Positions 6,795 through 57,980 of a stretch of 64,000 bases of DNA are shown here, in pieces; the first letter of the stretch is position 1; each line of letters opens with the position of its first letter. A program made the translations under genes and the position numbers. The DNA comes from a virus: the UHGV virus genome UHGV-1558314; one strand, 5' to 3'. Under the pieces are notes generated by a model that did not search any database, was not told the origin of the DNA, and worked only from the letters and a program-made list of their open reading frames with translations.

Positions 6795-6830
6795 AAAAAA
6801 ACTCCGACAGAATTGTTCTGTCGGAGTTTG
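6795..6830. terminator. Putative bidirectional intrinsic terminator
   Basis: Stem actccgacag/ctgtcggagt with aattgtt loop, flanked by A6 upstream and T-rich downstream on plus strand. Confidence 0.5.
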
Positions 6831-22949: not shown

Positions 22950-22972
22950 TATATGTTGATATTGTACAACAT
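22950..22972 (-). promoter_or_regulatory. Recurrent promoter box (coding-strand ATGTTGTACAATATCAACATATAAT)
   Basis: Plus-strand tatatgttgatattgtacaacat; TATAAT-like element ~10 nt downstream of the box on the minus strand. Confidence 0.45.
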
Positions 22973-25689: not shown

Positions 25690-25700
25690 ATTATTATCTT

Positions 25701-27795: not shown

Positions 27796-27816
27796 TATAT
27801 GTTGATATTGTACAAC
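27796..27816 (-). promoter_or_regulatory. Recurrent promoter box
   Basis: Plus-strand tatatgttgatattgtacaac; minus-strand context TTGTACAATATCAACATATAATATAAATAC. Confidence 0.45.
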
Positions 27817-27975
27817 GCTAAGTGTCATTTTGCACTGTCGTCACCAATTGTTATTGATGGTGTTGCAAACAATGCAAGCAAACACCAACCACTTTTAGTA
27901 ACTGCACAAGCAACTGCTATTGCAGCAAAGAAGCTTGCATAAATGATTGCTGCAGCAAGCCAACTTGTTTTATCG

Positions 27976-40277: not shown

Positions 40278-41543
40278 TTACCGATATTTGATGTGCCATG
40301 GCCGCATAAATGCGCATGCATTAATGCAGTTTGCATACACATATCGAAGCATTGCAATTGCATTGCTGACATCACTTACTGCAGCAGGCTCATAATTTGC
40401 ATGGCCGCCAATCTTAGCATTCAAAGCATCACGAGTAATTGGTGCAAGACTCCCATTTCTGAGTTCAGGCCATAACTGTGCTGCAAGTGATGCATTGTTT
40501 ACAATGGCTTGCTTATGAAATATTGCATTTTCTCGTGCGTTCTTTTTGCAATTTGACTGCCATATGCCATACACAAAGTATGGCTGATGCATAACCACAC
40601 AATTGCCAGACAGCTGCAAAATTGCATGCACAAAGTCGATTGCAGTGTCTGCATCAAGACCCTTTGTTTTGCAATCATTGTAATCGATATTGTACAACTT
40701 AAGCCACTCTGCATCGAACATCTCATATGGGTCATTGATGTAAATGTGCTTGAACCATAGCAATTCTGCATCAGAAGACATCACTGCAATGTCTACTTGT
40801 GCAATACGCTGCCAGTTGTCATCAAATATGCTGCTTGGGATGCTGTCATGCTTTACGCCACTGTAGCATGTCATTGCTGCAGTGCAATGCAGCATAGGCC
40901 AAACTTGAAGTCGCTTGCAGCATTCTGCAAAAACATCTGCGCATGCATTGACATCAGCAAGGGCGTCATGAGCAGATTCAAAGTCATGACCGAACAAACC
41001 TCGATATGCATCGACAAGTTTTGCAGACCCATTGCTCAAATGCTTTGCAAAGCCTTTGTACAGAAACTTTGTGTCAATGACGGGATATTGAGTCATGAAG
41101 TTTGCAGTTTTGCAACGCTGACATTCATAATCGAGAATCGTCAAGTCATATGGTGCGTTGTGTGCAATAAGATGCGTTACACCAAAACGCTCCAAGTCAA
41201 GTCTGAACTGGTCAAGCACTTTTTGCATTGGCTCTCCATGTTCATACAACTGCGCCATAGTATGACCATGCACAGCAAGAGCTTCTGCTGGCATATCATC
41301 AAAACTGCTGTTGAATCTGCCAAGTGGCATTACAAGCATGTTGTTTCGATGCAGTTCTATAATGTTGCCCGCATAGTCAAGTCTGAAGATTTTGTATGCA
41401 AGCTGAACTACAAATGACATCTCTTGCAAATCAATGACATCTTGCTTATGCCAGTAATCGACTGCTAACCCTGTTGACTCTACATCAAACGCTGCGCATA
41501 CAAGCTCTGTGATATGCTCTTTGCTTTTATTGATATGTTCCAT
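40278..41543 (-). CDS. DnaQ-like (DEDDh) 3'-5' exonuclease with ~200-aa C-terminal extension
   Basis: Exo motifs AAFDVESTG, HNAPYDL, HDALADV. Confidence 0.6.
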   Translation of the reverse strand: MEHINKSKEHITELVCAAFDVESTGLAVDYWHKQDVIDLQEMSFVVQLAYKIFRLDYAGNIIELHRNNMLVMPLGRFNSSFDDMPAEALAVHGHTMAQLYEHGEPMQKVLDQFRLDLERFGVTHLIAHNAPYDLTILDYECQRCKTANFMTQYPVIDTKFLYKGFAKHLSNGSAKLVDAYRGLFGHDFESAHDALADVNACADVFAECCKRLQVWPMLHCTAAMTCYSGVKHDSIPSSIFDDNWQRIAQVDIAVMSSDAELLWFKHIYINDPYEMFDAEWLKLYNIDYNDCKTKGLDADTAIDFVHAILQLSGNCVVMHQPYFVYGIWQSNCKKNARENAIFHKQAIVNNASLAAQLWPELRNGSLAPITRDALNAKIGGHANYEPAAVSDVSNAIAMLRYVYANCINACAFMRPWHIKYR

Positions 41544-42763: not shown

Positions 42764-43822
42764 TTACTGCTTCAAGCCTGTGAACAGTTCATACTTGAAT
42801 GCAGGCCCTGCTGTGTAAGCCTCAAAGTAGAAGTCACCAATATTGATGCTTGCAATAGCGTCATCGACAGCTTTCTTGTAGCCTACACGTTCAATTGTCT
42901 GCTTATCGCATTTACGCCAATATGTGCTGTGCATCATAAGCGTGGGTGATGCAGCATAGTCTACTGCAAGCTGTTGTTTTGCAGTGTCAATGTGATGTTC
43001 ATAGATGTGCACATCATTGCCAGTCCAAATGAACTCTCTTGCCGCACAGTTAGTCAATGTTGCAACAATATGTGTAAGCAATGCATATGATGCGATATTG
43101 ATGGGCACACCAAGACACATGTCACAACTACGCTGAGTAAGCGCACAGTCAAGCCACATGCTTGGTACTTGAGCAGAATCAAGGCATTCTGCAGAACAAT
43201 CATGCACAAGCATGCTATCATTAGCAATCTGAATTCGTTCTTCAAGAGTCATTGGCTGACAATTGAACTGAAACAGCATATGACATGGCGGCAATGCCAT
43301 CTGAGACATTTGTGCAGGATTCCATGCAGACACGACTTTGTAGCGGCCAGTTGGATTGATGACAATGTCTTTAATGCAAGTTGCAAGTTGGTCATATCCA
43401 CTGTCATTGAAGTTGCGCCACTGATACCCATAGATAGGTCCGCAATCACCATACTCAGGCTTGCTGAATTTTGTGTTATGCAGTTCTGTGCACCAAGTTT
43501 CAAAGTCGACATCTTCACCTGGATGCAGTTTACGCCAATGACGATATGCATCCTGATGCCAGAACTTTGTAATACCAAGCGTGTCAAGCGTTTTTACATT
43601 TGTATCACCTGACATAAACCACAGAAGTTCTCCAATGACACCCTTGACAAACATTCTCTTGGATGTCAACAGTGGAAAGCCTTTACGCAAATCAAATCGC
43701 ATTGATTCTACAAACAATGACTTTGTGCGAGGCATGTTTTCACGAGCAGGCTCCTTAAATCTGCCATGTTCAATAACATTGTTAAGTACTCTCAAGTACT
43801 CAGTGTCGTGTTTGATATTCAT
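42764..43822 (-). CDS. thyA: Thymidylate synthase (ThyA family, canonical dUMP-type)
   Basis: ELLWFMSGDTN, LPPCHMLFQF (catalytic Cys), GVPINIASYALL with Asn at the base-specifying position. Confidence 0.75.
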   Translation of the reverse strand: MNIKHDTEYLRVLNNVIEHGRFKEPARENMPRTKSLFVESMRFDLRKGFPLLTSKRMFVKGVIGELLWFMSGDTNVKTLDTLGITKFWHQDAYRHWRKLHPGEDVDFETWCTELHNTKFSKPEYGDCGPIYGYQWRNFNDSGYDQLATCIKDIVINPTGRYKVVSAWNPAQMSQMALPPCHMLFQFNCQPMTLEERIQIANDSMLVHDCSAECLDSAQVPSMWLDCALTQRSCDMCLGVPINIASYALLTHIVATLTNCAAREFIWTGNDVHIYEHHIDTAKQQLAVDYAASPTLMMHSTYWRKCDKQTIERVGYKKAVDDAIASINIGDFYFEAYTAGPAFKYELFTGLKQ

Positions 43823-44444
43823 GAATGGGATGTTTATGAGTGTCTAATGATATGTCTGAGAATTCATATGCATACTTTGATATTGCAACACCATTTGCAT
43901 CTTCAAATGCTTCTGTAAAGTTGCTATCAATCCATCGTTTGACAGACTTAACTCCGCCTAAATGACATGCTGCAAGCAATGACGCTTCGGTTATTGTAAA
44001 TGTGTTATCATTGTATGTCGCTTTACGCCCAATTGCGTCATAACAACCGTAGTGCTGCAGCAATTCTTGTTGACGTTCAAGTAGCATATGCTGCACCGCA
44101 ATCTGCTTTGTAGAATCTTTAGCAATTTCTTGCAGTGAACAAGTCAATCCTTTGTATCGTACCAAGTCATCATGAGCAATCTTTGTTAGCTGCCATCGAC
44201 CTGTTGCGCCAAATCGATTTGTGATATGCCAACGATTGCGAGATTCAAGATAGCCCAGCTTATCTAAGTATTCTGCAAAGCTGCAAGTTTCTGGTTCAGT
44301 GACGTCTAACAAGACGTGCACATTTGACAAATTTGCGACTGGCGCATATGTGACATGTTTTGTTGCAGTGCAATCACATAATGTCGGCCATGCAATGATA
44401 AAAGCAACACCAATTTTGATGAGCGATTCACATAATCTTATCAT
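43800..44444 (-). CDS. Lytic transglycosylase (SLT-domain)-like protein with N-terminal hydrophobic segment; candidate endolysin
   Basis: YLESRNRW...GATGRWQL resembles SLT ES...GAxGLMQ; N-terminal SLIKIGVAFIIAWPTL may be a membrane anchor. Track start is TTG; ATG 44442-44444 used. Confidence 0.35.
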   Translation of the reverse strand: MIRLCESLIKIGVAFIIAWPTLCDCTATKHVTYAPVANLSNVHVLLDVTEPETCSFAEYLDKLGYLESRNRWHITNRFGATGRWQLTKIAHDDLVRYKGLTCSLQEIAKDSTKQIAVQHMLLERQQELLQHYGCYDAIGRKATYNDNTFTITEASLLAACHLGGVKSVKRWIDSNFTEAFEDANGVAISKYAYEFSDISLDTHKHPIHEYQTRH

Positions 44445-44488
44445 TTGTTTGAAATTAGTGAAGAGCACTTGCAGGCAGCTCAATCTCC

Positions 44489-44504
44489 TGACAGTACACT
44501 GTCA
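44489..44504. promoter_or_regulatory. Perfect inverted repeat TGACAGT-AC-ACTGTCA
   Basis: Between helicase stop (44510) and SLT-like gene start. Confidence 0.3.
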
Positions 44505-44509
44505 TGCAA

Positions 44510-46387
44510 TCAAAAGCCTGCAAAGAAATCAGCATCAGCAGCATCTTGCTGCGATGTTGACTCTTGTTCAATCACAAATCGACTGTGCAACTTTTGATTA
44601 TGTTTTATGTATGGCATAATGCGCCGGATTGATTCATCAATGACAAACGTTTCACACCAGTCATTTGCATGTCGAATGCCTCGACCAACTGACTGTACGA
44701 AGCTTTGATAGCACTTATTGCGATACCAGCTTTCGTGATTTGCAGCTTTTGTTTTGACTACGATATCACCAAGTGATTGCCAAGGTAATTTTGCAACAAT
44801 TTGACATCTACAACGATTGTCTGGTAAGTCAACGCCTTCAGTAATGCTAAAGCCTACAAGTACGTAGTTAGTGCCATCAGCAAGCATTGCAAGTTTGTTT
44901 TGTTTATCTTCAGCATTGACATATGTCAGCATTCTGCGTTTGTGCTTGCTGTTATTGATGATATAGTTTGCAATGTCTCGTGTTGATGTGTGTATGATAC
45001 AGTTGCAGTCATGCGTGTCAAGAATGCTGTCAATCTTCTCAACAAGTCGAGGCATATTTGCCGCTTTATTCTTGTAGCTCAATGACAACGCAGGCCTGCA
45101 CAGTACAATGGGGGATTTGCTAAAATCCCAATCAGGCTCCATGTAGAATGCTACATAGTTTTTGATGCCATTGAGTGCAGCAAATGTGTCGATGTCACCA
45201 ATTGTCGCTGACATCCACAATTGTGCGTGTGTAGCATCACTGTGATGCACCAGCGTATTTGCAAGAAGCTCATCATTGACACATTTGAATTGCAAGCTGT
45301 TTGTTGCAGCGTCAAGTACTACAAGCATGTCACCAGGTGATTGTTCAGTTGCATCAAGCATTGTAATGATTGAATATGACAACGTATCACAGCTGGCAAC
45401 AAAGCGAATGAACGCTTTCTCAAATTGACCAAGTATTTTACCAGAATCCTGAAGTTCACTTAGCTTGTCATATGCAGTATGCAAAAAGTCTACAAGTTCT
45501 GACAACTGCTGTGCAAGCACTCTTGCTTCTGCTCGCATTGTTGCAATGTCATATTGTGTTGTTGCAAGCTTAATGATTGCTTTGACTTGTGCAAACACAT
45601 TATTGCGAAGTTCTACATATTTATTCTGATTTTCAAGAGTCATGATACCTGCAATCAGTGACTCGGCCTTTGTGCAATTCTGAATGAATCGAGGACCAAT
45701 TGACGTGTAAAGAAAGCCTGACAAAATGTCATCAATCTTATGGCACTCATCGAATATTGTCAATTCACGAGGCCCAAATAAGTTTTTGACGCAATTGACT
45801 TGTATCAACCAGTATGCATAATTGAGCACAGTGCAATTTGCTGCTGCAGCCTTTTGACGAGTCTGCAAATATGCGCATTTAGGTCCGCATGGCAATGCAA
45901 GAGCTTTCTTTGATGACAGCCCGTCTTGCTGGCATTTGCCCATACTGAATGGCAGCCCATTGACATGACAAATGTAGTTGTCTCGACCTTTGAGCATTAC
46001 ACAACTTCTGAATGCTGAAGTAGTTGTATCTGCTTTAGCATTGTTGTCGTACAAATATTGCTGAATGAACTTGTCGTACTGGTCTTGCAGCAGTTTATCA
46101 GAAGTCAGTACATACGACTTAAAGAACGTTGCACAAAACATTGCAACCACAGATTTCCCCGTTCCAGTCGCGCCCTGCAACACAACATTTTGCCCATTTG
46201 CAATGCAACGAATGATGTCAATAATTAGTTGACGTTGAGTTGCGTCAAAACGTGCTTGGTCCCATTTGCATGTCTTTGATTGTGCAAGATATGCTGAGAA
46301 TTTGTCGATATGTGCTACAATGAGCTCATCAAGCTCTTGCTGAGACTGTTCTTCTGTCTTATGTTCTGTTGGTGTTAGTCTACCCAT
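44510..46387 (-). CDS. DinG/XPD-family Fe-S helicase
   Basis: Walker A GATGTGKS, DECH box FDECHKID, four-Cys cluster between them, C-terminal VGRGIRHANDWCETFVIDE. Confidence 0.65.
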   Translation of the reverse strand: MGRLTPTEHKTEEQSQQELDELIVAHIDKFSAYLAQSKTCKWDQARFDATQRQLIIDIIRCIANGQNVVLQGATGTGKSVVAMFCATFFKSYVLTSDKLLQDQYDKFIQQYLYDNNAKADTTTSAFRSCVMLKGRDNYICHVNGLPFSMGKCQQDGLSSKKALALPCGPKCAYLQTRQKAAAANCTVLNYAYWLIQVNCVKNLFGPRELTIFDECHKIDDILSGFLYTSIGPRFIQNCTKAESLIAGIMTLENQNKYVELRNNVFAQVKAIIKLATTQYDIATMRAEARVLAQQLSELVDFLHTAYDKLSELQDSGKILGQFEKAFIRFVASCDTLSYSIITMLDATEQSPGDMLVVLDAATNSLQFKCVNDELLANTLVHHSDATHAQLWMSATIGDIDTFAALNGIKNYVAFYMEPDWDFSKSPIVLCRPALSLSYKNKAANMPRLVEKIDSILDTHDCNCIIHTSTRDIANYIINNSKHKRRMLTYVNAEDKQNKLAMLADGTNYVLVGFSITEGVDLPDNRCRCQIVAKLPWQSLGDIVVKTKAANHESWYRNKCYQSFVQSVGRGIRHANDWCETFVIDESIRRIMPYIKHNQKLHSRFVIEQESTSQQDAADADFFAGF

Positions 46388-46388
46388 T

Positions 46389-46422
46389 CTAAATGAGATT
46401 TAGATTATGTTCGAATATATGA
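46389..46422 (-). promoter_or_regulatory. Conserved 5' leader hairpin plus shared 16-mer upstream of helicase gene
   Basis: Inverted repeat TCTAAAT-gag-ATTTAGA abuts the ATG, identical to the leader of 49413..53339; tatgttcgaatatatg also occurs at 29648-29663. Confidence 0.4.
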
Positions 46423-46631
46423 GAACATATATTATTTGTAAAGATATAATACTACAAACAGCACACATTTGCACTTTGACATAACTGATTGAGTATCAAT
46501 CAATTATGAGTTTATAAAAGTTTTTCAAAAGTAGGGTGTTGTTGTTTGAGTAGAGTGTTGTTAATGCTGTCAGCTGTCTTGTTAGCATTATCGATTGCTT
46601 GCAAACTATCAGCCGTCATAGAACATCACAA

Positions 46632-46665
46632 AAGCAAGCAGACTACAATTGCAGTCTGCTTGCTT
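46632..46665 (-). terminator. Palindromic terminator-like element, copy 1
   Basis: aagcaagcagact acaattgc agtctgcttgctt; 27/28 identical to element at 62977-63004. Confidence 0.45.
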
Positions 46666-46687
46666 TGACATATGTGTAGCATATAGC

Positions 46688-47044
46688 TTATTTGCACATA
46701 AACAATGCAGCAAACCAATTCACTGGCTTGTCAATAAGCTGCTTCCACATAGTCCAATTGTACATGCCATGTGCAAACATTGTAAGAGCAAACAGCAGCA
46801 TACACATTGATACAAGCCAATCAGCAAATGGCATATTGCCCCATCGAATGTACTCGAAAATGCCAACTTTAACAAGCTGAGCAAACAAAATGAGCATTAC
46901 AGCCATTGCAAGTCGCGTCCAGACTACATATTGCTGAGTCTTATCTACAAACTTTGCAATCAATGCTGGCACAAAGTACATAATGTATGCAAACAGCAGC
47001 AAGCAAAAGCCTGCATACAGCAGATTAGAAATAAAAGCTCCCAT
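46688..47044 (-). CDS. Multi-pass membrane protein (118 aa)
   Basis: Four hydrophobic segments. Confidence 0.4.
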   Translation of the reverse strand: MGAFISNLLYAGFCLLLFAYIMYFVPALIAKFVDKTQQYVVWTRLAMAVMLILFAQLVKVGIFEYIRWGNMPFADWLVSMCMLLFALTMFAHGMYNWTMWKQLIDKPVNWFAALFMCK

Positions 47045-47047
47045 ATT

Positions 47048-47929
47048 CTATCGTTTGAATTTGATGAAGTGTTCAGCATCGAGGCCCTCAAATACATACG
47101 GGTCAAGAGTTTCCCAGAAGTTTGAGTATGTCGTTGTCTTTGCAATGCTTGTTTGCTTTGACAAGTTCATATTTGGGTAGCCAAGCATTGCATAGTGTCG
47201 CTCATATATGTGCATTGACGTCGCATTATGCACATATGCGCCAAGCTTAAGACCAAGTTCATTTGCGACAAGTTCTTGCAACAAAGTGAATGCAAACTGG
47301 TCGTTGCAAAAGCCCCAAATGACATCATTGCTTCGCATGTATGTTGTCAAGTACAGCTTATCACCACGAACATTGAAAACAAGATTCAATGTGCATGGCA
47401 TGTCTTTGCCAGTGTAGTTTGCATATTGCGGCTCATAAATGCTAATAACTGCTCGTCTTGTGCATTCATGATTTCGCAAACGTTCAATGACATCTGCAAT
47501 CTGCTTGTGCCAAATTGCGCCATACTGTGAATTGACATTGACACCATCGTCGCTGAATTGCTTCCAACGAGGCAAATAACGTTCAATGCATTCAACTGCA
47601 GGATTGGCTGTCATGTACCACGCAAATTCTGCAGCAGCATTGAGCTTTTTCCATGGTCGTACGTCAATCTTGATTTGCCGCTGTGAAGGGTCCTGAATAA
47701 CTACAGACACATTCAGCAATTCTTTTGTTCGAGTCACTGTTTGTGCATTGTTGCCCTTTGATTCTACAAACTCACCTCTACAATGAAGTTCATACAAAAT
47801 TGAGCGAAATGCTTCTGTTGCAGTGTTTTCAATGATTGTCGTCTGTTGATAACATAAATTTGACGACAATGCTTCAGCATCATTGTACTTTATGCTGTCA
47901 TTGTCATAAGGTGAATTTTTTGTGTGCAT
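47048..47929 (-). CDS. Deoxycytidylate hydroxymethylase-like protein (ThyA-family paralog)
   Basis: RRAVISIY, PCTLNLVF (catalytic Cys), MRSNDVIWGFCNDQFAF with Asp at the base-specifying position, MHIYERH; closely resembles recalled T4 gp42 (MRSNDVVFGFRNDYAW, LHVYSRH). Confidence 0.55.
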   Translation of the reverse strand: MHTKNSPYDNDSIKYNDAEALSSNLCYQQTTIIENTATEAFRSILYELHCRGEFVESKGNNAQTVTRTKELLNVSVVIQDPSQRQIKIDVRPWKKLNAAAEFAWYMTANPAVECIERYLPRWKQFSDDGVNVNSQYGAIWHKQIADVIERLRNHECTRRAVISIYEPQYANYTGKDMPCTLNLVFNVRGDKLYLTTYMRSNDVIWGFCNDQFAFTLLQELVANELGLKLGAYVHNATSMHIYERHYAMLGYPNMNLSKQTSIAKTTTYSNFWETLDPYVFEGLDAEHFIKFKR

Positions 47930-47953
47930 ATTTTGGGATGTTTGTTTTTGTTA

Positions 47954-49048
47954 TCATACAACGACGGTATCTCGTTTGCAATCTGTTCTGTCGAATATCG
48001 AGCAACAATATGATGCAGATTGCTCTTTGATTGCAATAGCTTCGTCATTGTCAAGTGATGAAATACCATCTATGTATGCTTTTGTATTGCCAGCGATGTC
48101 ATCATTTGTTAGCAATGCTGCACGACGTTCAGTACCAAAGAAGCCAAAGCACAATTGACGCTGCAATGCTTCACGAGAAATCTTGTCATCAAACTCGGAT
48201 TTCATGTGTTGCATAAATTCGACAATATCATCAATGTCGCATTGAGTAAAGTCAATGTACAATTTATGCATGTACTTGAATCGTTTGTAGTCTGTTGCAA
48301 GAATTTCTGGGTGCACAATGAACAACGTCTTTTTGCTGTCTATTGGATTTGCAATGACTGACGCTTGAACATAATCAACAAGCACGCCAGATTCACGAAG
48401 TTGCTCAACTGTTTTGCCAAATATATGCCCAAACGTGTCATCAAACCACTTCAAGTATACTTCGTTGTCTTCATCTTTTGATGCGCCAACAATGTAAATC
48501 TCATTGACTCCAAGCGCTTTAAGACGAGTGTCAGATAGCATCGTGTTCAATTGATGCTGCACATACAGCATTGGGCTGCTATGCAAAACTGTTTTGACAA
48601 TCTCACAAGCAATGTCCATATATGCATAGTCAAGCTTTGCAGATTTTGACACATACACTGCACGTTGCTGCAATGGCTCAATTGCTGAGCATGTGGTCAC
48701 AAAGTTGCCAACACATTCTGCTACTGCAATGTCATGCAAGTCATCTGCAATGTACACAATACTTGACAAGTCATCAAATGTTTGAACAAGTTGCTGAAGC
48801 TTTGTTTTGTAATTGCAGAGCATCAATGACTTGATGTTGCAATTGCCAAGCATTGTCTTGATGAGTCGTTGACCTGCTTCAGTGCTGTCACCAGAAATGA
48901 CATGCACATCGCAGTCAAACCAGTTCAACATGTCGATTGCATGCCGAACGCCATATTGCATTTGTTTTGCGAACTTGCCAGATTCATTGAACAGCATTTC
49001 ACCTGACATAATGCCGTCAAAGTCACATACGATTTGAAGTCTGTCCAT
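47954..49048 (-). CDS. HAD-superfamily (KdsC-like) phosphatase domain protein with uncharacterised C-terminal half
   Basis: N-terminal VCDFDGIMSGE ... VHVISGDS ... IADDLHD. Confidence 0.4.
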   Translation of the reverse strand: MDRLQIVCDFDGIMSGEMLFNESGKFAKQMQYGVRHAIDMLNWFDCDVHVISGDSTEAGQRLIKTMLGNCNIKSLMLCNYKTKLQQLVQTFDDLSSIVYIADDLHDIAVAECVGNFVTTCSAIEPLQQRAVYVSKSAKLDYAYMDIACEIVKTVLHSSPMLYVQHQLNTMLSDTRLKALGVNEIYIVGASKDEDNEVYLKWFDDTFGHIFGKTVEQLRESGVLVDYVQASVIANPIDSKKTLFIVHPEILATDYKRFKYMHKLYIDFTQCDIDDIVEFMQHMKSEFDDKISREALQRQLCFGFFGTERRAALLTNDDIAGNTKAYIDGISSLDNDEAIAIKEQSASYCCSIFDRTDCKRDTVVV

Positions 49049-49052
49049 GTTG

Positions 49053-49385
49053 CTACAATTTTGAAGTTAAGTCAATTCGAATTTTGTCTGCGTTGCTTTG
49101 GTCAACAAATCTGTCATCAAAGAAACATTCAACTACGACAAGCTTCTTTGAATTCACAAATTCGATTAGCGATTTTTGCATTGCATCAAGTTGCTTCATG
49201 CATTTACAAAAGCTGCTGTATGACATGATTTGCTTTGGTAACATATCAAATGCGTCTGCAATTCGCTGATGAGCAATCTTTTTTGATGTTGCAATAATGA
49301 CATCTGCTTTGTTGTCATTTGCATGATTGCCAAATATCGCAATATGGTAAACTTTCATTGTATGAGTGATTTTGCTGTTATACAT
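49053..49385 (-). CDS. Hypothetical protein (110 aa)
   Basis: ATG start verified. Confidence 0.3.
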   Translation of the reverse strand: MYNSKITHTMKVYHIAIFGNHANDNKADVIIATSKKIAHQRIADAFDMLPKQIMSYSSFCKCMKQLDAMQKSLIEFVNSKKLVVVECFFDDRFVDQSNADKIRIDLTSKL

Positions 49386-49412
49386 TTATGTTATATATGC
49401 ACATTGTGCCAG

Positions 49413-52400
49413 TTAACAAATTGATGACGTGCCATCAGTATTTGCTACAACTGTCAATGCACTATCAAACTCATCTTGTTGCAATACATGGTCAACTATG
49501 AGTGTTTTGCGAATTGCAGAAAGCTTGGTAAGCAACTGCATCAACACTTGCTGATAATTGATATTGTTGACATCATGCTCAGCGCCAACAATCTGCCCAT
49601 TGCTAAGCTTGCCACTGATTTCGTCAATGAGCAAGATGTTGCCCACTTTGTTTAAGCGTTGAGTCAAAATGAGATGCACGATTGCAAGACCTGCGAAAGT
49701 TCCTTCCATGCCAGACATTTGACTTACACTTCGAATTGACTTCGAGCCCATCAAGTCAATCATCTTCAACACATTGTTGTCATTGATGTCAAAGAACACT
49801 CGGTAGTTCAATGAATCCAGCAAATCATTGAGCTGTGCATTCAGTGATGTTGCAATTGCTGCAAAGACATATGAAACTAAGCCTCGTTTGCTTGTGCACT
49901 GCTTATATGCATTGTACACCAAGTTTGCAATGTTCCACTTTTTCGAAGCTTGCAAATCTTTCTTGAGAGCTTCAATTCGCACATTGTTTGCTGATAAGTC
50001 TGCTTGCATTGTTGCAATTTCTGCATTGATGCTTAGCAGTTTTGAGTTCGCTTCAGTTTCATGCTGCTTAGCATCATCAATGTCGACTTGCAATGCAGCA
50101 TTTGTTGTAATATGCTGCTGAGTTTGCTGTGCATGTTCAAGTGCAAATGCTGCAGCAGTCTTATCAATCTCAAGTTGTTTAAGCGCAGACTCATATGTCG
50201 CTTTCTTATCATACTCTGCTTGAGCAATTTCAAGTTCAGCATTTATTGCAGCCAGTTCTGATTCTACTGTAGATTTTGATTGCAATACATCTTGCTTTGC
50301 TTGTTCAGCTTTACGTTTGATGTCTGCAAGTTGATTTGTGATATCTGCAATTTGCATTTTGACTGCTTCGACTTCAAGCAATGTTGCTGCAGTAGCCATT
50401 GGTTGTGCAATGAATGCATCTAAGTCTCTTTGCGCATTGACTACAGTTCTCTGCAAATCATTGAGCTTTTCTGCATGCATGTCATATGCTGCTTTGTGTG
50501 CTGGATTCAGTGCAGCAATTATTGCATTTGAATCTGTAACATCTATGATTGCTGCTTGCAGTTGCTCAATTTCATACTTCAAATTGCCAATTTTGACAAC
50601 ATTCTCATTGAATTGCTCTGTCTTTTGCGCACATTCTTGACGCAACTTAGCAAGCTCAGTTGACAACCACAGCTTGTATGCTTGTCCTGTGCCAGATGTC
50701 AAGTCATTTGTACATACAGGGCATTTGTCGTTTTCAAGTTGCTTTTGCTTGTCTATAACATTGTCGATGTTTGTTTTTGCAGCAGATATTTCTGTTCTAA
50801 GTGCATTTTGAACAGTGTTGATGTCTTCAATTTGCTTTTGCAAAGCATCTATTTTTGCCCGAGTGTTTGCATTGTACGACTTGCCAAGATTTATCAGCAC
50901 AGAATCAATGTGCTGCTTTGCTGCATCATATGCAAGCTTTGATTCATCAAGCTTTGTTCTGTACAATGACTCTGCATGCGCAACTTCTTTCTGCACTTTT
51001 GCAGATAGCTCATTCTGTTTTGTAAGCAGCTCAGCATATGTATTGTGCAGCTGTGAGCCAGATGCTATGACATTTGTGTATGCTGTATTAGCTTCATTGT
51101 CAATATTAGTGAGTTGCTGCTCAATCTGTGCTTTTGCTGTTTGCAACTTAGACATATCTTGCAATGCAAGTGCAGCAATGTCAAGCTCAACTTTGTGAAT
51201 CTTTGCAATGATGCCATCGATATTTGCTGTTGCATCTTCTATAGTTAAGATGTCTGCAGGAATTTGATGTAGTTTCTTTGAGAGCTCTTCTACTTTTGCA
51301 CGAGCTTTTGTAAGCTTCGCGGACCACTCTTTTTGATTATCTTGTCGTAACTGCAAAGAGTAATTGAGTTCATTGCAAGTTGTATTGAGAGACTCAAGTT
51401 CTGCTTTTATTGCAACATCAGTCAATGCGGGCTTACTAAGGCCATCAAACAATGCAGCCTTTGCAGCATCATTAGAATTGCCAAGCTGTACAAATGTATT
51501 GATGCCAAGAGTATCAAGTAGCCAGTCATTCAATGAATTTGAGTCCATTGCAATGATTTGGTCAAGTAGTGTCTGATTGATACAAACATATCGCGACAAT
51601 TCCCAGATAGAGCCAAAGATTGCATATAGCGTGTCTTTGATTTCATGCTGCGGCACTACGTAGTCATCTGACAATCTTACAAGCTGAACAGTCTCATTGA
51701 CTGCTGACACGTTATCTCGCCATGAGCCATCTGCATTTATTCGAGAACCTCGTTTGAATTTGCGTTCAAGTGTTCGAATCAATTTGTAGTGAACATTTTG
51801 ACCTGCTACTACATGCACAAAGACACAAGAAGCTTCAAGCTTATCATATGACTCATTGTCAATCAATTTGTCATTGAAGTATGTCAAAGCGTTCTGCTTT
51901 GTTGCTGCAGAAGACTGTTCAGCGTCAATAAAGCCAGTCAGCAGCCATTTGATAAGTCTGAAGATTGTAGTCTTGCCATTGCCATTGTTGCCTCTAACTT
52001 GTGTAAGCTGTGCAAGATTGTCAAAGCTGACATCAACATCTTTCAATGCCATGAACTGATTTGCTTTAACATTTTGAATGACATATTTTGCAACTTCAGT
52101 GTCAAAAGACAATTTATCAATTTGTTCATCAATCAATGACTTGAACATGTCAACAAACTGCTGAGCATCTTCAGTAGCAACTATGGCATTGCGTTCAATG
52201 TATGCATTGACCCAGTCAAGTGCAGCGTCTTTAAGCCATTCAGCAGTTTGAACCTTTTGCAGCAAATTGTCGCCATTTGCGTCTACAGCATTGATTGAAT
52301 CAATGACAGCAGAATCATACAGAATGTCAATTGCAGCAACAACATATGAACTTACAAGATTCTGTGCAATGCGCTCAACAATACCAGACAGTTCGGGCTT

Positions 52401-53339
52401 TGTGACCTTTGACTTGATTTTGATTTTATTGATGCGGCCAGGGTTGATGAGTGCAATCTTGTCTGTTTTGACATCATTATCAATTGTGATTGTATGATAA
52501 TGCACAAGCTGCTCAAGTGGATGCCACTCTACCACAATTCGCTTGTTGTCAATATCGATGTCAAGCAAGTTGTAGCCATGTTCTGCAGTACCATGCTGTA
52601 TTGCAGTGTCATTCAACAAATAGTCGCCTTCACCAAAATCTCTGACAATTGGCGAGCCGCAATATGTTAATGTCTTATCACCAGCAACCCATATTGCATG
52701 CTTATGAATGTCACCCATTGCAACAAAGTTGCTATTAAATTGCATTGCATCTATACGACTGTCATTGTCACCACGAACAATACAATCATCAAAGTTGACA
52801 CAATTCTTTACAGGGTCATGGAACAGCTCAATGACACACATTGATGACAATGCTGCAATCTGCGATTCATCAAGTGATGCCCAAGGCGAATATGTGCCAC
52901 CAGACCACTTCTCATTTTGAGCCCATACTGCAGCAGCAAAACCAGGTGCAAGCAGTTCAACTCTTGAACTGTTGATATACTTGATTCGCTTGTCATCAAT
53001 TGCAGTTACAAGCTTGTCAATGCTATCTGTCCACTGCATTTGTGAACCATCACCAGCATCAAATGTGTTATCACGTTGCTTCAAATCATGATTGCCAGCA
53101 GTAATGACAATTTGAAGCTTGTCATTGACTTCAAGCATGCCTTTGAGCAGCTTAACAAACAGCGACTCTTCAAGTGAATTGCTATTCCAATGCTCAAACA
53201 CGTCGCCGACAATGAATACAAACTCAACTGACTTTGCTTTGTCAATTAGTTGTTTGTTGATGTGCTCATATTCTACGAAACGTCGTAAATGACCTTGTCG
53301 AACATTATATTGAATGTCTGCTATGTGAAGTGCTTTCAT
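49413..53339 (-). CDS. Fused Mre11/SbcD-like nuclease and Rad50/SbcC-like ATPase (1308 aa)
   Basis: N-terminal phosphoesterase motifs (LHIADIQ, IVGDVFEH, TAGNHD) resemble recalled T4 gp47; then Walker A GNNGNGKTT, long coiled coil, zinc hook CPVCTNDL, C-terminal LLIDEISGKL. Confidence 0.65.
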   Translation of the reverse strand: MKALHIADIQYNVRQGHLRRFVEYEHINKQLIDKAKSVEFVFIVGDVFEHWNSNSLEESLFVKLLKGMLEVNDKLQIVITAGNHDLKQRDNTFDAGDGSQMQWTDSIDKLVTAIDDKRIKYINSSRVELLAPGFAAAVWAQNEKWSGGTYSPWASLDESQIAALSSMCVIELFHDPVKNCVNFDDCIVRGDNDSRIDAMQFNSNFVAMGDIHKHAIWVAGDKTLTYCGSPIVRDFGEGDYLLNDTAIQHGTAEHGYNLLDIDIDNKRIVVEWHPLEQLVHYHTITIDNDVKTDKIALINPGRINKIKIKSKVTKPELSGIVERIAQNLVSSYVVAAIDILYDSAVIDSINAVDANGDNLLQKVQTAEWLKDAALDWVNAYIERNAIVATEDAQQFVDMFKSLIDEQIDKLSFDTEVAKYVIQNVKANQFMALKDVDVSFDNLAQLTQVRGNNGNGKTTIFRLIKWLLTGFIDAEQSSAATKQNALTYFNDKLIDNESYDKLEASCVFVHVVAGQNVHYKLIRTLERKFKRGSRINADGSWRDNVSAVNETVQLVRLSDDYVVPQHEIKDTLYAIFGSIWELSRYVCINQTLLDQIIAMDSNSLNDWLLDTLGINTFVQLGNSNDAAKAALFDGLSKPALTDVAIKAELESLNTTCNELNYSLQLRQDNQKEWSAKLTKARAKVEELSKKLHQIPADILTIEDATANIDGIIAKIHKVELDIAALALQDMSKLQTAKAQIEQQLTNIDNEANTAYTNVIASGSQLHNTYAELLTKQNELSAKVQKEVAHAESLYRTKLDESKLAYDAAKQHIDSVLINLGKSYNANTRAKIDALQKQIEDINTVQNALRTEISAAKTNIDNVIDKQKQLENDKCPVCTNDLTSGTGQAYKLWLSTELAKLRQECAQKTEQFNENVVKIGNLKYEIEQLQAAIIDVTDSNAIIAALNPAHKAAYDMHAEKLNDLQRTVVNAQRDLDAFIAQPMATAATLLEVEAVKMQIADITNQLADIKRKAEQAKQDVLQSKSTVESELAAINAELEIAQAEYDKKATYESALKQLEIDKTAAAFALEHAQQTQQHITTNAALQVDIDDAKQHETEANSKLLSINAEIATMQADLSANNVRIEALKKDLQASKKWNIANLVYNAYKQCTSKRGLVSYVFAAIATSLNAQLNDLLDSLNYRVFFDINDNNVLKMIDLMGSKSIRSVSQMSGMEGTFAGLAIVHLILTQRLNKVGNILLIDEISGKLSNGQIVGAEHDVNNINYQQVLMQLLTKLSAIRKTLIVDHVLQQDEFDSALTVVANTDGTSSIC

Positions 53340-53341
53340 AT

Positions 53342-53383
53342 TCTAAATGAGATTTAGATTATATGTTGATATTGTACAACATG
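53342..53383 (-). promoter_or_regulatory. Promoter box plus conserved leader hairpin upstream of Mre11-Rad50 fusion gene
   Basis: Minus strand GTTGTACAATATCAACATATAATCTAAATCTCATTTAGAAT then ATG. Confidence 0.45.
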
Positions 53384-53418
53384 CAAAATGCACTTGCATT
53401 TTGATACAACGTATGTCA

Positions 53419-53766
53419 TTATTTTGCAAGCATTTTGCTGATTGCATCTATCACAGTTTCACTGAGCAAGTAGTAGACAACGCTTATCAGCAATGATATC
53501 AGTACTGCAGCTGTGATAAATTGCAACGCATTCACAATTGCACGCACAAATGTTATCTGTGTGTTGTATGCAAGCACTATGCAGCATAGCACAATAATGA
53601 CACACCAGACTACAATTGCATATGCAGGCATCAATGAATTTGTCCATATGCAGTACAATACAGTAGTTAGCATCAAAAATGCTATTGCTCTGATGACTGA
53701 CACAATGATGTCTATGTAGAGCTTCATTACACGTAAATGAACTCTTGGCTTATGCGGTTTCATCAT
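53419..53766 (-). CDS. Small multi-pass membrane protein
   Basis: Start at ATG 53764-53766 overlapping upstream stop (ATGA); three hydrophobic helices. Confidence 0.35.
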   Translation of the reverse strand: MMKPHKPRVHLRVMKLYIDIIVSVIRAIAFLMLTTVLYCIWTNSLMPAYAIVVWCVIIVLCCIVLAYNTQITFVRAIVNALQFITAAVLISLLISVVYYLLSETVIDAISKMLAK

Positions 53767-54995
53767 GACTTTATGTACAATTCTGCAAGTTGTCTGGTGT
53801 ACAATCGTGGATTGTGATATGCTTTCCAATATGCAGTAGACTTTATTGCAGCAAGAATCTCATCATAATGTTTGACTGCTTTTGCTACAACTTCATCAAG
53901 TACATGCAAATCTTCTACACTAACAAGCAGCCATTTTTCTACAATGTCAATGAATTCTTGATTGCAATTAAAGCCATATTTGTAGTTGCAAGTGTCAAGT
54001 ACAAGTGGGATGCAGTCATTTGTCAGTGCTTCAAAAAATCTACGAAGACTGAAACAATTCTCATCATATGATGGAATGCTTAATGTAAACTTGGCAGTCT
54101 TGATGAGTTGCAAATACTCTTCGTATGGAATCAGAGGACCATTGTGCTTCCACTGATTGTTATGTCGTCTTGTTGTGTACTTGAACAAAAACTTTGAACT
54201 GTCAAGCTCACAAAGATGGTCCATGCGTAAAATGTAGTTATAGCGGTCTCTTCTATCAGGCCAACTGTCAGTCATTGCAAACACAAAGTCTCTTTGCTTG
54301 TCACATTTTGCTGACATACCTCTATGCTGACACATGCAGTACCAATATTGCTGCGATGGACTGAACTCGAACTTTGAGTGATGCTCACTGCCATCTTTGC
54401 ATTGTTGAACGTAAATATTGTCAGGCACAAAGTGAAAGTAGAAATGTCGAATTTGCAAGCCGTCAATGTAGTCAAGCTTATGCTGCAATGGGTCCTCACA
54501 GAAATTGTAACACTGAATGCGTTTTGCTGCAGCATACTCAGCAACTATGAATGTGCACACCCATTGCAATGCGATGTCTTCACTCTTCAAAAAGTCAACA
54601 AGTGGCTCATTTGGATGCGCTTTGCATTCATTGAACATTTTGTACCACTTGCATTGCTCCATGTCATACTTGGAGACTGTATTGCCATTAAAAAATGACA
54701 CAGTATCAATTTTGAATGCCTCAAGTTGTTTATGCACAATGTCGATTGCTTGTGCATATGTGACAGTCTCATCAGACATTATTTGTGCAAACTTGATTGG
54801 ATGCGCATGCAAATTTGCAATTGTGTCTGCTGACATTTTGCGCTGTGTATGATAATCGACATACAAAAACTGACACTTGTCTGTAAGCAATTCAAGCATT
54901 GCTACAGATTTCCATCGAATTGCTTGAAAGAAATTGAAGTGCGCAGTTTGAAAAATGAGATGCGTAGGCTTGTCAGAATGAGTCAAAGTTTGCAT
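53763..54995 (-). CDS. Glycosyltransferase-like protein (GT-B-type C-terminal motif), paralog B'
   Basis: IPSYDENCFSLRRFFEALTNDCIPLV resembles GT-B donor-binding motif; paralogous to 58026..59582 (shared EDPLQHKL, PSQQYWY). Track start is TTG; ATG at 54993-54995 used. Confidence 0.45.
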   Translation of the reverse strand: MQTLTHSDKPTHLIFQTAHFNFFQAIRWKSVAMLELLTDKCQFLYVDYHTQRKMSADTIANLHAHPIKFAQIMSDETVTYAQAIDIVHKQLEAFKIDTVSFFNGNTVSKYDMEQCKWYKMFNECKAHPNEPLVDFLKSEDIALQWVCTFIVAEYAAAKRIQCYNFCEDPLQHKLDYIDGLQIRHFYFHFVPDNIYVQQCKDGSEHHSKFEFSPSQQYWYCMCQHRGMSAKCDKQRDFVFAMTDSWPDRRDRYNYILRMDHLCELDSSKFLFKYTTRRHNNQWKHNGPLIPYEEYLQLIKTAKFTLSIPSYDENCFSLRRFFEALTNDCIPLVLDTCNYKYGFNCNQEFIDIVEKWLLVSVEDLHVLDEVVAKAVKHYDEILAAIKSTAYWKAYHNPRLYTRQLAELYIKS

Positions 54996-56158
54996 GGACA
55001 AATGTCGCAGTTATGTTGATGTTTGTGTTTATTTATGAAGTCATATGTCACTGCAAAAAAGTGCTTTGCAATGTCATATCGAGTTTTCAAATATGCTGCT
55101 TGTCGTTCACAAAATGCTGCATAAATATCTGGGTGTTGTTTGAATGCTGCAATGCGTTGCTGTACTTGTTCTGCAGAATGCACATATGACACTTTGCTCA
55201 AATATACATCATCTGCAAATAATCGTTTGTCTTTGTCAACTGCGCAATCAACAAAAGTTGCAATTCGTGCAACAATTGCTTCACCGACACGATTTGGTAT
55301 TAGCCCATATTGCTCATATTGCTGTTCGCCGATAGCAATGTGTGCTGCTGCATATGACATTGCATATGGCACACTATAAAATGGCACACTAAAATCAAAT
55401 GAACAATTTGACTGCAGCAATTGTGTTTGTGCATCAGACAATCTACTTGTCAAGTTGCCTGTATATTTGTGCTCACCAAGAAAACTTGAGCGACAGCCTG
55501 AATCTACATAGTATCGAATGACTTTGTTTATGCGACTGTCAGATAGCATATGCCAATCTCTTGTAGCATATATCAAGTCTACTGTTTTTGCGCCAATATG
55601 ACGAGGCTCTATCGCAACATTGCTGTATGTTGGCAGCATAAACAATGGCAGCCATTTGACATTGTTGAACACTGAATGCTCATTTGACAAATTCATGCAC
55701 TGGCTAAGTTCAAGTACTGGCTCATCATACACGCCATGTAGCTCAACTCTGCCTGCATGCACAAAGTTGACACGCTTAAATGGAAATCGCATATCAGTGC
55801 AAACTGTCATTCTTGCTGCAATAGACATTCGCCACATAGCATGCAGCTTAACAACTGCTTCTGCTTGAGGTCGAGGCAACATATTTAGCAAATCAATCCA
55901 GCCGCCCCACAAAATCCAAACATCATTTGAACAGATGTTGAATTGCAAACTCAATATGTCTTCTACTGTTGTAGCAATAATGTCATGCCCATTGATGCTT
56001 GCAAGGTGTTTTCGTTGATTTGCAATAATAATGACTTGACTGAATGGAGACTCTGGAAATGACACAAGCGCTTTTGCAAACAACACGGGTTCTTGCGACA
56101 CCAAGTTGTTTGAGTATGGGTCGATTATGCAATCAAGCTTGTGTATGAAGAGTCTCAT
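54983..56158 (-). CDS. Hypothetical protein (391 aa), paralog A' of 59579..60745
   Basis: Shared N-terminus MRLFIHKLD vs MSKLFILKFD and TDMRFPF vs TDLRFDF; sits immediately upstream of a GT-like gene. Confidence 0.4.
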   Translation of the reverse strand: MRLFIHKLDCIIDPYSNNLVSQEPVLFAKALVSFPESPFSQVIIIANQRKHLASINGHDIIATTVEDILSLQFNICSNDVWILWGGWIDLLNMLPRPQAEAVVKLHAMWRMSIAARMTVCTDMRFPFKRVNFVHAGRVELHGVYDEPVLELSQCMNLSNEHSVFNNVKWLPLFMLPTYSNVAIEPRHIGAKTVDLIYATRDWHMLSDSRINKVIRYYVDSGCRSSFLGEHKYTGNLTSRLSDAQTQLLQSNCSFDFSVPFYSVPYAMSYAAAHIAIGEQQYEQYGLIPNRVGEAIVARIATFVDCAVDKDKRLFADDVYLSKVSYVHSAEQVQQRIAAFKQHPDIYAAFCERQAAYLKTRYDIAKHFFAVTYDFINKHKHQHNCDICPCKL

Positions 56159-57136: not shown

Positions 57137-57195
57137 TATATGTTGATATTGTACAACATGCAAAATGTATTTGCATTTTGATACAACATATATTG
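57137..57195 (-). promoter_or_regulatory. Promoter box with adjacent palindrome
   Basis: tatatgttgatattgtacaacatgcaaaatgtatttgcattttgatacaac, near-identical to 53360-53410. Confidence 0.45.
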
Positions 57196-57411
57196 TCATT
57201 TTGCACAGTCTGATGCAATTAAATCTTTGTCAAAGCATTCATCTATAATGTCTTCAATAAGATACGCTTCGACATTGTTAAGCTTCAAGATATCTACGAG
57301 TTTTGCTTTGATATCGCAAGCTAATGCAGATTCGACTGTATGCAATATGACTGATGATACGACATGCTTGTCTGTCATCATTTGTAATTGCTGTGGTGTT
57401 ACTCTACTCAT
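57196..57411 (-). CDS. Small acidic hypothetical protein (71 aa)
   Basis: ATG start overlaps Tmk-like stop (ATGA). Confidence 0.3.
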   Translation of the reverse strand: MSRVTPQQLQMMTDKHVVSSVILHTVESALACDIKAKLVDILKLNNVEAYLIEDIIDECFDKDLIASDCAK

Positions 57412-57980
57412 GCGCCAAGTTCAGCTAAGCATTTCAACACATTGTCTTGCAGACTTGCATTGTTGTCAATTTCGACAATATGCAATGGTGAGTTCTTTCG
57501 CCACTCATCATATGCAGCAATCATTTCATTGCGTTTGCTGACATCAATGTTGACATCACCGCAAAAATTATCGACAAAATCTGGCACAACATCACGCTTG
57601 CATAAGAACACTACGTGCGGCAATGTTGCAAGCTTCTTTTCATATGCTTCAAAGAATGCTTGATGCTTATCAGTGTGCAGCTCTTTGTAAAGCGTTGTGT
57701 TGAAGATTTGATGCGTGATGAATGAACGGTCACACAAAAACGTTGCTTTGCCAAAGCCTTGAGAGTCATTTCCAATGAACTCTAAGAAGAAGCGCCAATC
57801 ATAAAAGAACGCTTCATTGAGGTCCCAAGGTTCGGGCATTGGGTCATCACCTGACTCATGCTGCTGCCACCAAGAACGAGATGTTCGTTTGCAATTGATA
57901 AACCATGGGCGCCACTTCATCAATTCATTGATGAGTGTTGTTTTGCCTGAAGCTTCTACACCTTCAAATATCGCTATCAT
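57408..57980 (-). CDS. Thymidylate-kinase-like P-loop nucleoside monophosphate kinase
   Basis: P-loop FEGVEASGKTT and CDRSFITHQ (DR-Y/H-like). Confidence 0.55.
   Translation of the reverse strand: MIAIFEGVEASGKTTLINELMKWRPWFINCKRTSRSWWQQHESGDDPMPEPWDLNEAFFYDWRFFLEFIGNDSQGFGKATFLCDRSFITHQIFNTTLYKELHTDKHQAFFEAYEKKLATLPHVVFLCKRDVVPDFVDNFCGDVNIDVSKRNEMIAAYDEWRKNSPLHIVEIDNNASLQDNVLKCLAELGA

Follow-up and report, generated by a model that had tools for sequence, protein, structure and literature searches.

A putative iron-sulphur (Fe-S) helicase in a phage and the questions it raises

One gene of the virus genome UHGV-1558314 raises the question whether it encodes a helicase of the XPD/DinG type with an iron-sulphur (Fe-S) cluster and, if so, what such an enzyme does for a phage. 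The gene lies on the minus strand at 44510 to 46387 of a stretch of 64,000 nucleotides (nt), here called the window. A reading made from the letters alone, without database searches (the sequence-only reading), had taken it for a DinG/XPD-type Fe-S helicase in a phage replication and repair module. The protein is placed in the XPD/Rad3/DinG branch of superfamily 2 (SF2) by three independent lines, namely sequence families, a profile matched to the sequences of solved structures, and the fold. With a probability of about three in four it is an XPD/DinG-type helicase with a likely [4Fe-4S] cluster that is accessory in phage replication, recombination and repair.

Gene and family assignment

The open reading frame (ORF) codes for 625 amino acids (aa) from an ATG start, with exactly the boundaries that the sequence-only reading had given. 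Its start methionine is that of the closest homologs in an alignment of 43 homologs with 22-98% identity to the query, and the conservation counts below refer to this alignment. The coding sequence and its principal motifs are as follows.

44510..46387, minus strand: coding sequence of the helicase, XPD/DinG family (ORF call, PHROG 2488, Pfam, Foldseek)
46151..46174, minus strand: Walker A (motif I) GATGTGKS, residues 72-79 (translation)
45740..45751, minus strand: motif II (Walker B) DECH, residues 213-216 (translation)
44624..44974, minus strand: helicase domain 2 (Helicase_C_2), residues 472-588, with motif V SITEG and motif VI QSVGRGIR (Pfam, alignment, translation)

In Walker A the residues G75, G77, K78 and S79 are almost invariant, and in the DECH box D213 and E214 are invariant and H216 almost so. 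The further SF2 motifs III (MSAT, 392-395), V (SITEG, 514-518) and VI (QSVGRGIR, 565-572) are present, and the columns of motifs I, II, III, V and VI are all invariant or close to it, as in an SF2 motor.

Pfam assigned Helicase_C_2 with 70.5 bits (gathering score 25.3, E 2e-19), and DEAD_2 passed on the borderline with 21.8 bits against a gathering score of 21. The strongest family match was PHROG 2488, "DNA helicase" (293 bits, E 9.8e-87), in which residues 39-594 cover profile positions 13-564 of 579. The nearest curated NCBIfam model was YoaA with 102.5 bits (E 2.5e-29) against a cut-off of 680; two DinG models gave 60.6 bits (cut-off 598) and 54.4 bits (cut-off 789), and the rad3 model 54.9 bits (cut-off 246.95). 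Since these scores lie far under all curated cut-offs, the protein is not classed as YoaA, DinG or Rad3/XPD proper, and the helicase is, by sequence, a phage-clade member of the XPD/Rad3/DinG family outside the named cellular subfamilies.

When the profile of the 43 homologs was run against the PDB sequences, Thermoplasma acidophilum XPD (TaXPD) came first (2.4e-25), followed by FANCJ (1e-23), human XPD (6e-22), DinG (1.7e-21) and then yeast Rad3. A single-sequence phmmer search of the PDB gave weak matches with a best value of 2e-6, and the profile was needed for a clear ranking. Aligned by hhalign with E. coli DinG, the helicase profile reached a probability of 99.4% over 518 columns. The DinG/XPD assignment proposed at the outset is thereby upheld by Pfam, by the profile against solved structures and by the fold match described below.

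A compact four-cysteine domain

A cluster of four cysteines had been noticed between Walker A and the DECH box. This interval holds eight cysteines (85, 129, 140, 152, 167, 171, 185 and 199), and four of them, spaced C140-x11-C152-x14-C167-x3-C171, make up the conserved subset. Counted in exact columns, C140 and C171 occur in every one of the 43 homologs, C167 in 42 and C152 in 38. C152 is shifted by 2 residues in five sequences; with a tolerance of up to three columns each of the four cysteines reaches 43/43, which bears out the four-cysteine cluster and answers the check on ligand conservation that the sequence-only reading had proposed. Of the 17 remaining cysteines in the helicase, none is found in more than 32/43. 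The conservation of the four-cysteine set is far beyond chance.

45875..45970, minus strand: compact putative [4Fe-4S] domain, C140-C171 (cysteine conservation, alignment to XPD and DinG ligands)

A criterion of the family is that four conserved cysteines lie between the Walker A and Walker B motifs (PMC3378879). The Fe-S ligands of TaXPD are Cys92, 113, 128 and 164 (PMC2435149) and those of E. coli DinG are Cys120, 194, 199 and 205 (PMC5679670). C140 aligns with TaXPD Cys92, the profile "lkGkdNYiC" falling on "mqGRVN-MC", and C171 aligns with TaXPD Cys164 ("CakkCpY" on "rnnvCPY") and, in a profile of the Fe-S region alone, with human XPD Cys190 ("CPYFLAR"). By hhalign, C140 corresponds to DinG C120, C167 to C194 and C171 to C205. 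The stretch GRDNYIC runs up to C140, and its R135 aligns with TaXPD Arg88 and human XPD Arg112, an arginine that contacts the Fe-S cluster (PMC2435149). A profile limited to residues 92-226 matched just the stretch from the fourth cysteine to motif II of XPD, Rad3 and Chl1. A local profile alignment that put C140 on FANCJ C310 was judged to be a mis-registered low-score segment and was not used.

The sequence-only reading had made its proposal depend on the alignment of the cysteines with the XPD ligands, and with C140 and C171 on TaXPD C92 and C164 this alignment was found. Because the cysteines align with known ligands at sequence-anchored positions, the Fe-S reading survives, and the four-cysteine domain most likely binds a [4Fe-4S] cluster.

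Predicted structure and the carboxy-terminal tail

An AlphaFold2 model built on the alignment had a mean predicted local distance difference test score (pLDDT) of 87.3 and a predicted template modelling score (pTM) of 0.85. The best Foldseek match was E. coli DinG 6fwr (E 4e-24, template modelling score (TM) 0.72), and next came long-form Thermoplasma XPD, Finegoldia DinG, CasDinG, S. aureus DinG, Chl1 and TFIIH-XPD. Whole-chain TM was 0.6-0.65 for XPD and Chl1, and the model has the four-domain fold with an arch. In a viral structure library the best matches were phage helicases named "DinG Rad3-related" or "ATP-dependent helicase".

45278..45706, minus strand: arch-like insertion between motifs II and III, residues ~228-370, mainly long helices (AlphaFold2 secondary structure)
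44513..44572, minus strand: disordered acidic/aromatic C-terminal tail ...QQDAADADFFAGF, residues 606-625 (pLDDT, alignment)

The helices of the arch region in the model span residues 232-248, 251-277, 281-314 and 321-346, and the region aligns across the arch of both TaXPD and DinG. At the other end of the protein, pLDDT falls under 50 at residues 610-625. The C-terminus reads ...DAADADFFAGF, and close homologs terminate in DDFF-x-x-[FLY]. Acidic C-terminal tails serve partner binding in bacterial SSB and in T7 gp4/gp2.5, which the acidic tail with its terminal aromatics seems to resemble.

Comparison with known cellular enzymes

E. coli DinG (6fwr/6fws) has the same four-domain layout of two motors, Fe-S domain and helical arch, although its identity to the phage helicase is 15-20% only. 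Its Fe-S domain is approximately 55 residues longer, its third ligand C199 lies in an insertion that the phage helicase lacks, and the phage C152 is without a DinG ligand counterpart. E. coli YoaA is of similar size (profile of 630 positions against 625 aa), carries a four-cysteine Fe-S motif as the phage helicase does and acts in replication-fork repair, but its cysteines are spaced differently at C108, C168, C173 and C179 (PMC9826845). YoaA works with the chi subunit of Pol III, whereas no sign of a chi-like partner was found for the phage helicase. Among XPD (Thermoplasma 4a15/2vsf; human, in TFIIH), FANCJ and Chl1, it is TaXPD that gives the best PDB profile match. The order of the ligands along the chain (C1...C2...C3...C4) is alike in XPD and in the phage helicase, but the loop between the third and fourth is about 35 residues in XPD and 3 in the phage helicase, and XPD has TFIIH-type partners that the phage helicase is without.

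Distribution among viruses

Homologs of the helicase were found by tblastn in 493 of 50,697 phage records (~1%), all with less than 60% identity. The carriers are Ackermannviridae of Salmonella, Klebsiella, Escherichia and Dickeya, phages of Vibrio and Rhizobium, Lak megaphages and haloarchaeal viruses. The best isolate homolog in these records was that of Chryseobacterium phage MA9V-1 with 29.7% identity. No match to the helicase region was found at the DNA level in the 50,697 records, and there is thus no isolate annotation to borrow. An exhaustive phmmer search of 1.84 billion cluster representatives retrieved 337 proteins when the limit was E <= 1e-30 and 3313 when it was E <= 1e-10. The sequence-only reading had held that phage replication modules more commonly use helicases of the Dda, UvsW or DnaB type; the XPD/DinG type is indeed a minority, but with 493 records and a PHROG of its own it is not rare.

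The members of PHROG 2488 include MA9V-1 ORF89, gp60 of the Salmonella phage Det7 (Ackermannviridae), Vibrio phage YC gp037, Rhizobium phage RHph_TM30 gp342, the helicase of a Lak megaphage and the Rad3-like helicases of haloviruses. The phage helicase matches this profile over its full length, although the best isolate member is just 29.7% identical. At least four cysteines lie in the same segment in all six homologs examined (MA9V-1, Det7, Vibrio phage YC, RHph_TM30, Lak-B9 and one halovirus), and the spacing in MA9V-1, C-x11-C-x15-C-x3-C, is almost that of the query. From first to fourth cysteine the phage homologs span 27-32 residues, the shortest Fe-S domains in this analysis, against 72-85 in XPD and DinG; the span is 27 in RHph_TM30 and between the outermost segment cysteines of Det7, and 32 in MA9V-1.

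The family, its fold, the Fe-S motif and the occurrence in phages are already known, as PHROG 2488 and hundreds of GenBank "DNA helicase" entries attest. The gene itself is new and divergent, with no more than 30% identity to any isolate protein and with scores far under every curated cellular model.

Genomic context and proposed role

The assignment of the gene to a replication and repair module agrees with its neighbours, which are an Mre11-Rad50 fusion, a DEDDh exonuclease and two homologs of thymidylate synthase (TS).

49413..53339, minus strand: Mre11-Rad50 (SbcD-SbcC-like) fusion nuclease/ATPase, 1308 aa (Pfam Metallophos and AAA_23; PHROG 35725 at 7e-113)
40278..41543, minus strand: DEDDh (RNase_T family) exonuclease (family scans)
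42764..43822, minus strand: canonical-type TS (Pfam Thymidylat_synt 4e-76; TIGR03284 240 bits, cut-off 108)
47048..47929, minus strand: divergent TS-family enzyme, upstream of the helicase (Pfam 3.7e-24; under all NCBIfam TS cut-offs)

The gene order is kept in metagenomic relatives with 98%, 63% and 43% identical helicases, which answers the check on genome context. The kept order is Mre11-Rad50 fusion, small ORF, KdsC-like ORF, TS-like gene, (membrane ORF), helicase, small ORF(s), TS and DEDDh exonuclease. In a relative with a 47% identical helicase (L013) the core of TS-like gene, helicase, TS and exonuclease is present, and the locus ends before the Mre11-Rad50 position. Further afield, the helicase of MA9V-1 follows thymidylate kinase and TS, that of RHph_TM30 lies between dCMP deaminase and DNA polymerase, and those of Vibrio phage YC and Det7 lie a few genes from RNase H, the former also ~2.5 kb from gp55 and gp47/gp46. 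The relatives usually lie near an Mre11-Rad50-type nuclease or genes of replication, recombination or nucleotide metabolism.

By analogy with its relatives, the enzyme most likely assists recombination and repair as an accessory 5'-3' helicase. It would be a monomeric SF2 DNA helicase of two RecA-like motor domains with a compact four-cysteine insertion and a helical arch insertion. As in XPD and DinG, single-stranded DNA would pass through a pore bounded by motor domain 1, the arch and the Fe-S domain; translocation in the 5'-to-3' direction would be powered by ATP hydrolysis, and the Fe-S domain would be the strand-separating wedge. Forks, D-loops, R-loops or protein blocks might be unwound or cleared in this way during recombination-dependent replication, in a pathway that the helicase would share with the two nucleases encoded nearby, Mre11-Rad50 and the DEDDh exonuclease. 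The gene would form a separate transcription unit, with terminator, promoter and leader of its own, in this phage and the relatives closest to it.

The niche so described would be that of T4 Dda, an unrelated 5'-3' helicase of SF1B. Dda is a functional analogue only: the proposed job is alike, that of a monomeric 5'-3' helper of forks and recombination beside gp46/47, but superfamily and fold are different and there is no sequence similarity. The complete genome of Vibrio phage YC (NC_048709.1), a T4-like phage of the Ackermannviridae, is informative here. Its annotation lists the gp59 helicase loader, gp61 primase, clamp and clamp loader; a second gene called "DNA helicase" there encodes a UvsW-like protein (Pfam UvsW_N), and T4 gp41 matched the genome by tblastn in two segments (1.6e-40 and 9e-33). 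Since this phage has a gp41-type helicase together with the XPD/DinG type, the latter is an extra helicase in that lineage. T4 Dda gave no tblastn match in the complete YC genome (best E 0.4), and the XPD/DinG enzyme is the only candidate found in YC for the 5'-3' accessory role of Dda. The coding sequence that corresponds to gp41, HWB64_gp005 (5758-8139), is wrongly annotated as 'DarB-like antirestriction'; its two blocks, gp41 3-209 and 207-464, lie ~1 kb apart, which suggests an intein or other insertion.

Alternative explanations

Several observations weigh against a Fe-S helicase in an accessory role. The middle cysteines cannot be aligned residue for residue with the middle ligands of XPD, the loop lengths differ, and C152, in a loop of differing length, is without a one-to-one ligand counterpart. 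The span from first to fourth cysteine is 31 residues against 72 in XPD and 85 in DinG. The window is 64 kb of a genome of ~175 kb, and a gp41/DnaB-type helicase or a Dda may lie outside it; the argument for a replacement of Dda draws on a single carrier genome with a distant homolog (26.5% identity) and depends on how sensitive tblastn is. Biochemical work on an XPD/DinG helicase from a phage did not turn up in literature searches.

As the span is far shorter than in XPD and DinG, zinc binding keeps a place among the explanations: the four cysteines might hold a structural zinc or nothing at all, in a miniaturised wedge free of Fe-S like the vestigial domain of CasDinG. The 31 residues with a C-x3-C end do fall short of TaXPD C92-C164, DinG C120-C205 and YoaA C108-C179, and cluster-free members of the family such as CasDinG exist (PMC10450177). 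These members have lost their cysteines, however, whereas all four are kept here across 22-98% identity; for three of them the aligned residue is a proven Fe-S ligand, and the arginine that contacts the cluster is kept as R135 (TaXPD R88, human R112; PMC2435149). A domain without Fe-S is therefore regarded as unlikely.

About as improbable is that the helicase is the principal helicase of the replication fork, replacing the gp41/DnaB hexamer and moving 5'-3' on the lagging strand with a phage primase. A match to gp41 or gp61 is absent from the 64-kb window, the published table of MA9V-1 has this helicase and a small DEAD-box protein only and no primase, the gene is placed amid genes of replication and nucleotide metabolism in several lineages, and the acidic C-terminal tail may recall the tails that tether proteins to a replisome. 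The tblastn searches with gp41, gp61 and Dda that gave nothing significant covered the window, and ~110 kb of the ~175-kb genome lies outside it; the annotation of the MA9V-1 group is sparse, and the carrier Vibrio phage YC has gp41, gp59 and gp61 as well. Literature searches found no replicative helicase of the XPD/DinG family, and we know of none. It is a long shot, too, that a main fork helicase combines the miniaturised Fe-S domain with a DDFF tail as replisome tether and a duplicated hairpin of 23-50 nt in the 5' untranslated region as a post-transcriptional operator shared with Mre11-Rad50.

A link to DNA hypermodification, in which the helicase opens or scans the duplex for modification enzymes or is specialised for modified DNA, appears very improbable. 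The helicase does lie between two TS-family genes in all close relatives and beside one in MA9V-1, and dCMP deaminase, a thymidylate-kinase-like gene, three glycosyltransferase-like genes and a KdsC-like phosphatase are found at the same end of the window. Genes of nucleotide synthesis and replication are, however, commonly co-located in large phages, and the homologs of RHph_TM30 and the haloviruses are not adjacent to TS genes. We know of no mechanism or precedent for such a role. The least probable is a helicase of defence or counter-defence, similar to CasDinG/Csf4 of type IV-A CRISPR, to Hna or the like. It would account for the match to the generic PADLOC model 'typeIV_DinG, CAS-IV-A associated' (191.6 bits, E 6e-57) and for the CasDinG and Hna structures among the Foldseek matches, CasDinG belonging to the same fold family. 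The Csf4-specific model, however, gave just 27 bits, and the TM of DinG (0.72) exceeds that of CasDinG (0.60) and Hna (0.48). The Fe-S cysteines are present here, whereas in CasDinG they are lost and the Fe-S domain is vestigial (PMC10450177). The tandem-repeat search found no CRISPR-like array, and no Cas family was found among the ORFs scanned with Pfam, PHROGs and NCBIfam, PADLOC having been run on three proteins only. The gene order within the replication and nucleotide module is, moreover, kept in all relatives, and an identity as CasDinG/Csf4 was rejected. An accessory XPD/DinG-type helicase thus remains the preferred explanation.

Leader repeat, promoter and terminator

The sequence-only reading had also described a leader hairpin shared by the helicase and the Mre11-Rad50 fusion. 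The repeat proved real and specific to the lineage, and the hairpin marginal. The elements found upstream of the two genes are listed here.

46386..46408, minus strand: 23-nt leader ATAATCTAAATCTCATTTAGAAT, helicase copy, extending over two bases of the helicase start codon ATG, its first and second (repeat search)
53340..53362, minus strand: identical second copy of the 23-nt leader, ending just before the ATG of the Mre11-Rad50 fusion (repeat search)
46409..46435, minus strand: 27-nt AT-rich hairpin module in the helicase leader (comparison with relatives)
46414..46442, minus strand: sigma-70-like promoter candidate TTTACA-17-TATATT (consensus scan only)
46625..46665, minus strand: strong terminator-like hairpin of 15 bp, then UUUUGUG (fold -25 to -28 kcal/mol, z = -5.6)

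The 22-mer of the leader (ATAATCTAAATCTCATTTAGAAT minus its first A) has exactly 2 matches in the window, with 0.01 expected. Its stem has 7 bp, with one G-C among A-U pairs and a 3-nt loop (UCUAAAU-CUC-AUUUAGA), and the z-score of the fold is -0.8 at the helicase and -3.2 at Mre11-Rad50. No further copies of the palindrome were found beyond two in the window and two in a close relative of 174.6 kb (IMGVR_UViG_3300045988_152288), and with only two copies per genome there is no wider regulon. Nor is the element present in relatives with 63%, 47% and 43% identical helicases, in which a general promoter-like motif alone is kept, so it is not a conserved feature of the helicase gene family. An Rfam scan of 44000-54000 returned no known leader RNA at E <= 1. 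By comparison of these sequences the leader element is recent and specific to this lineage.

Direct repeats of ATAAT lie on either side of the 27/28-nt module, ATAATATATGTTCTCATATAT(T)TCGAAC, which is missing from the Mre11-Rad50 leader of the window. In a relative with 98% protein identity (L011) it is in the Mre11-Rad50 leader instead (~3022-3049), and in the 174.6-kb relative (L015, L016) it is at both genes, giving a shared leader of ~50 nt. The most economical account is that a leader of ~50 nt was already duplicated in an ancestor and that slippage deletions between the ATAAT direct repeats followed independently. From the promoter candidate, transcription would begin close to the 5' end of the leader of 23 nt, and the terminator-like hairpin sits between an upstream ORF of 118 aa and this candidate. 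Since the 5' leader of the helicase copies that of Mre11-Rad50, joint expression is suggested, and co-expression of the two genes may reasonably be inferred from the sequence.

A promoter-like motif TGTTGTACAATATCA(ACATATAAT), often with (T/A)TGCAA 17 nt upstream of TACAAT, recurs in the window, with minus-strand sites for example at 22957-22971, 53367-53381, 57144-57158, 25710-25724 and 27803-27817. At up to 3 mismatches there are 23 matches against 7 expected, and 17 are on the coding (minus) strand. Close matches sit before genes, and the core also precedes the helicase and Mre11-Rad50 in the 63% and 43% relatives. Just past the helicase stop, at 44488-44505, lies a hairpin TGACAG-TGTA-CTGTCA (-10.5 kcal/mol, z = -2.1) with no T-run; it is followed by AGGAGA and then the TTG that is listed as the putative start of the ORF at 43800-44483, a frame of 227 aa without a family match.

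Other genes of the window

The Mre11-Rad50 fusion joins an SbcD-like phosphoesterase and an SbcC-like ATPase with a long coiled coil in one polypeptide, and the NCBIfam Rad50 and SbcD models match it far under their cut-offs only. It is kept in relatives at 1310-1332 aa, and MA9V-1 ORF70 'metallo-phosphoesterase' (3,981 bp) is of matching size. The canonical TS is two genes downstream of the helicase, beyond the 227-aa ORF, and the divergent TS homolog may be a pyrimidine hydroxymethylase.

The two TS homologs belong to a set of genes for pyrimidine metabolism and sugar transfer on the minus strand (42764-43822, 47048-47929, 47954-49048, 53763-55001, 54983-56158, 57408-57980, 58026-59582 and 60717-61442), which further comprises dCMP deaminase, a thymidylate-kinase-like ORF, three GT47/GT-B-like glycosyltransferases and a protein with a KdsC-like phosphatase domain. 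So dense a set suggests that the phage makes hypermodified, perhaps glycosylated, pyrimidines. Elsewhere the window carries T4-like genes of virion and replication, with a portal, a prohead protease, an end protector similar to gp2, a sigma factor similar to gp55 and a family-B polymerase split into two pieces. The latter occupies two minus-strand ORFs, 24184-25725 and 19370-20662, ~3.5 kb apart, which are matched by T4 gp43 residues 112-486 and 522-827; the ORFs between them (22976-24175 and others) include one weakly similar to a homing endonuclease. In the 1316-aa ORF 1612-5562 (minus strand) the head maturation protease (PHROG 207) is confined to the first ~240 residues and is followed by ~1000 unassigned residues, an unusually large protease fusion.

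Shine-Dalgarno-like GGAG/AGGA is almost absent from the 60 nt upstream of ~55 minus-strand ORFs, and these upstream regions are A-rich. Together with best matches to phages of the Chryseobacterium, Tenacibaculum and Sphingomonas PAU type, this hints at a Bacteroidota-like host. The lineage is a distant relative of the group of Sphingomonas PAU, Tenacibaculum PTm1 and MA9V-1, with DNA that is probably hypermodified.

Meaning for phage helicases

The result is a firm but ordinary annotation, and current understanding is not overturned by it. Since no biochemistry on phage members of the XPD/DinG family was found in the literature, the short Fe-S domain and the possible role as a replacement of Dda are mild leads. 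The repeated placement near Mre11-Rad50-type nucleases and the missing Dda in one T4-like genome, that of YC, suggest a non-orthologous replacement of the 5'-3' accessory helicase. Four residues, C140, C152, C167 and C171, have been pinpointed as likely Fe-S ligands in a metagenomic phage gene that lacked an annotation, and the short Fe-S domains of the phage enzymes could be minimal models of the Fe-S wedge.

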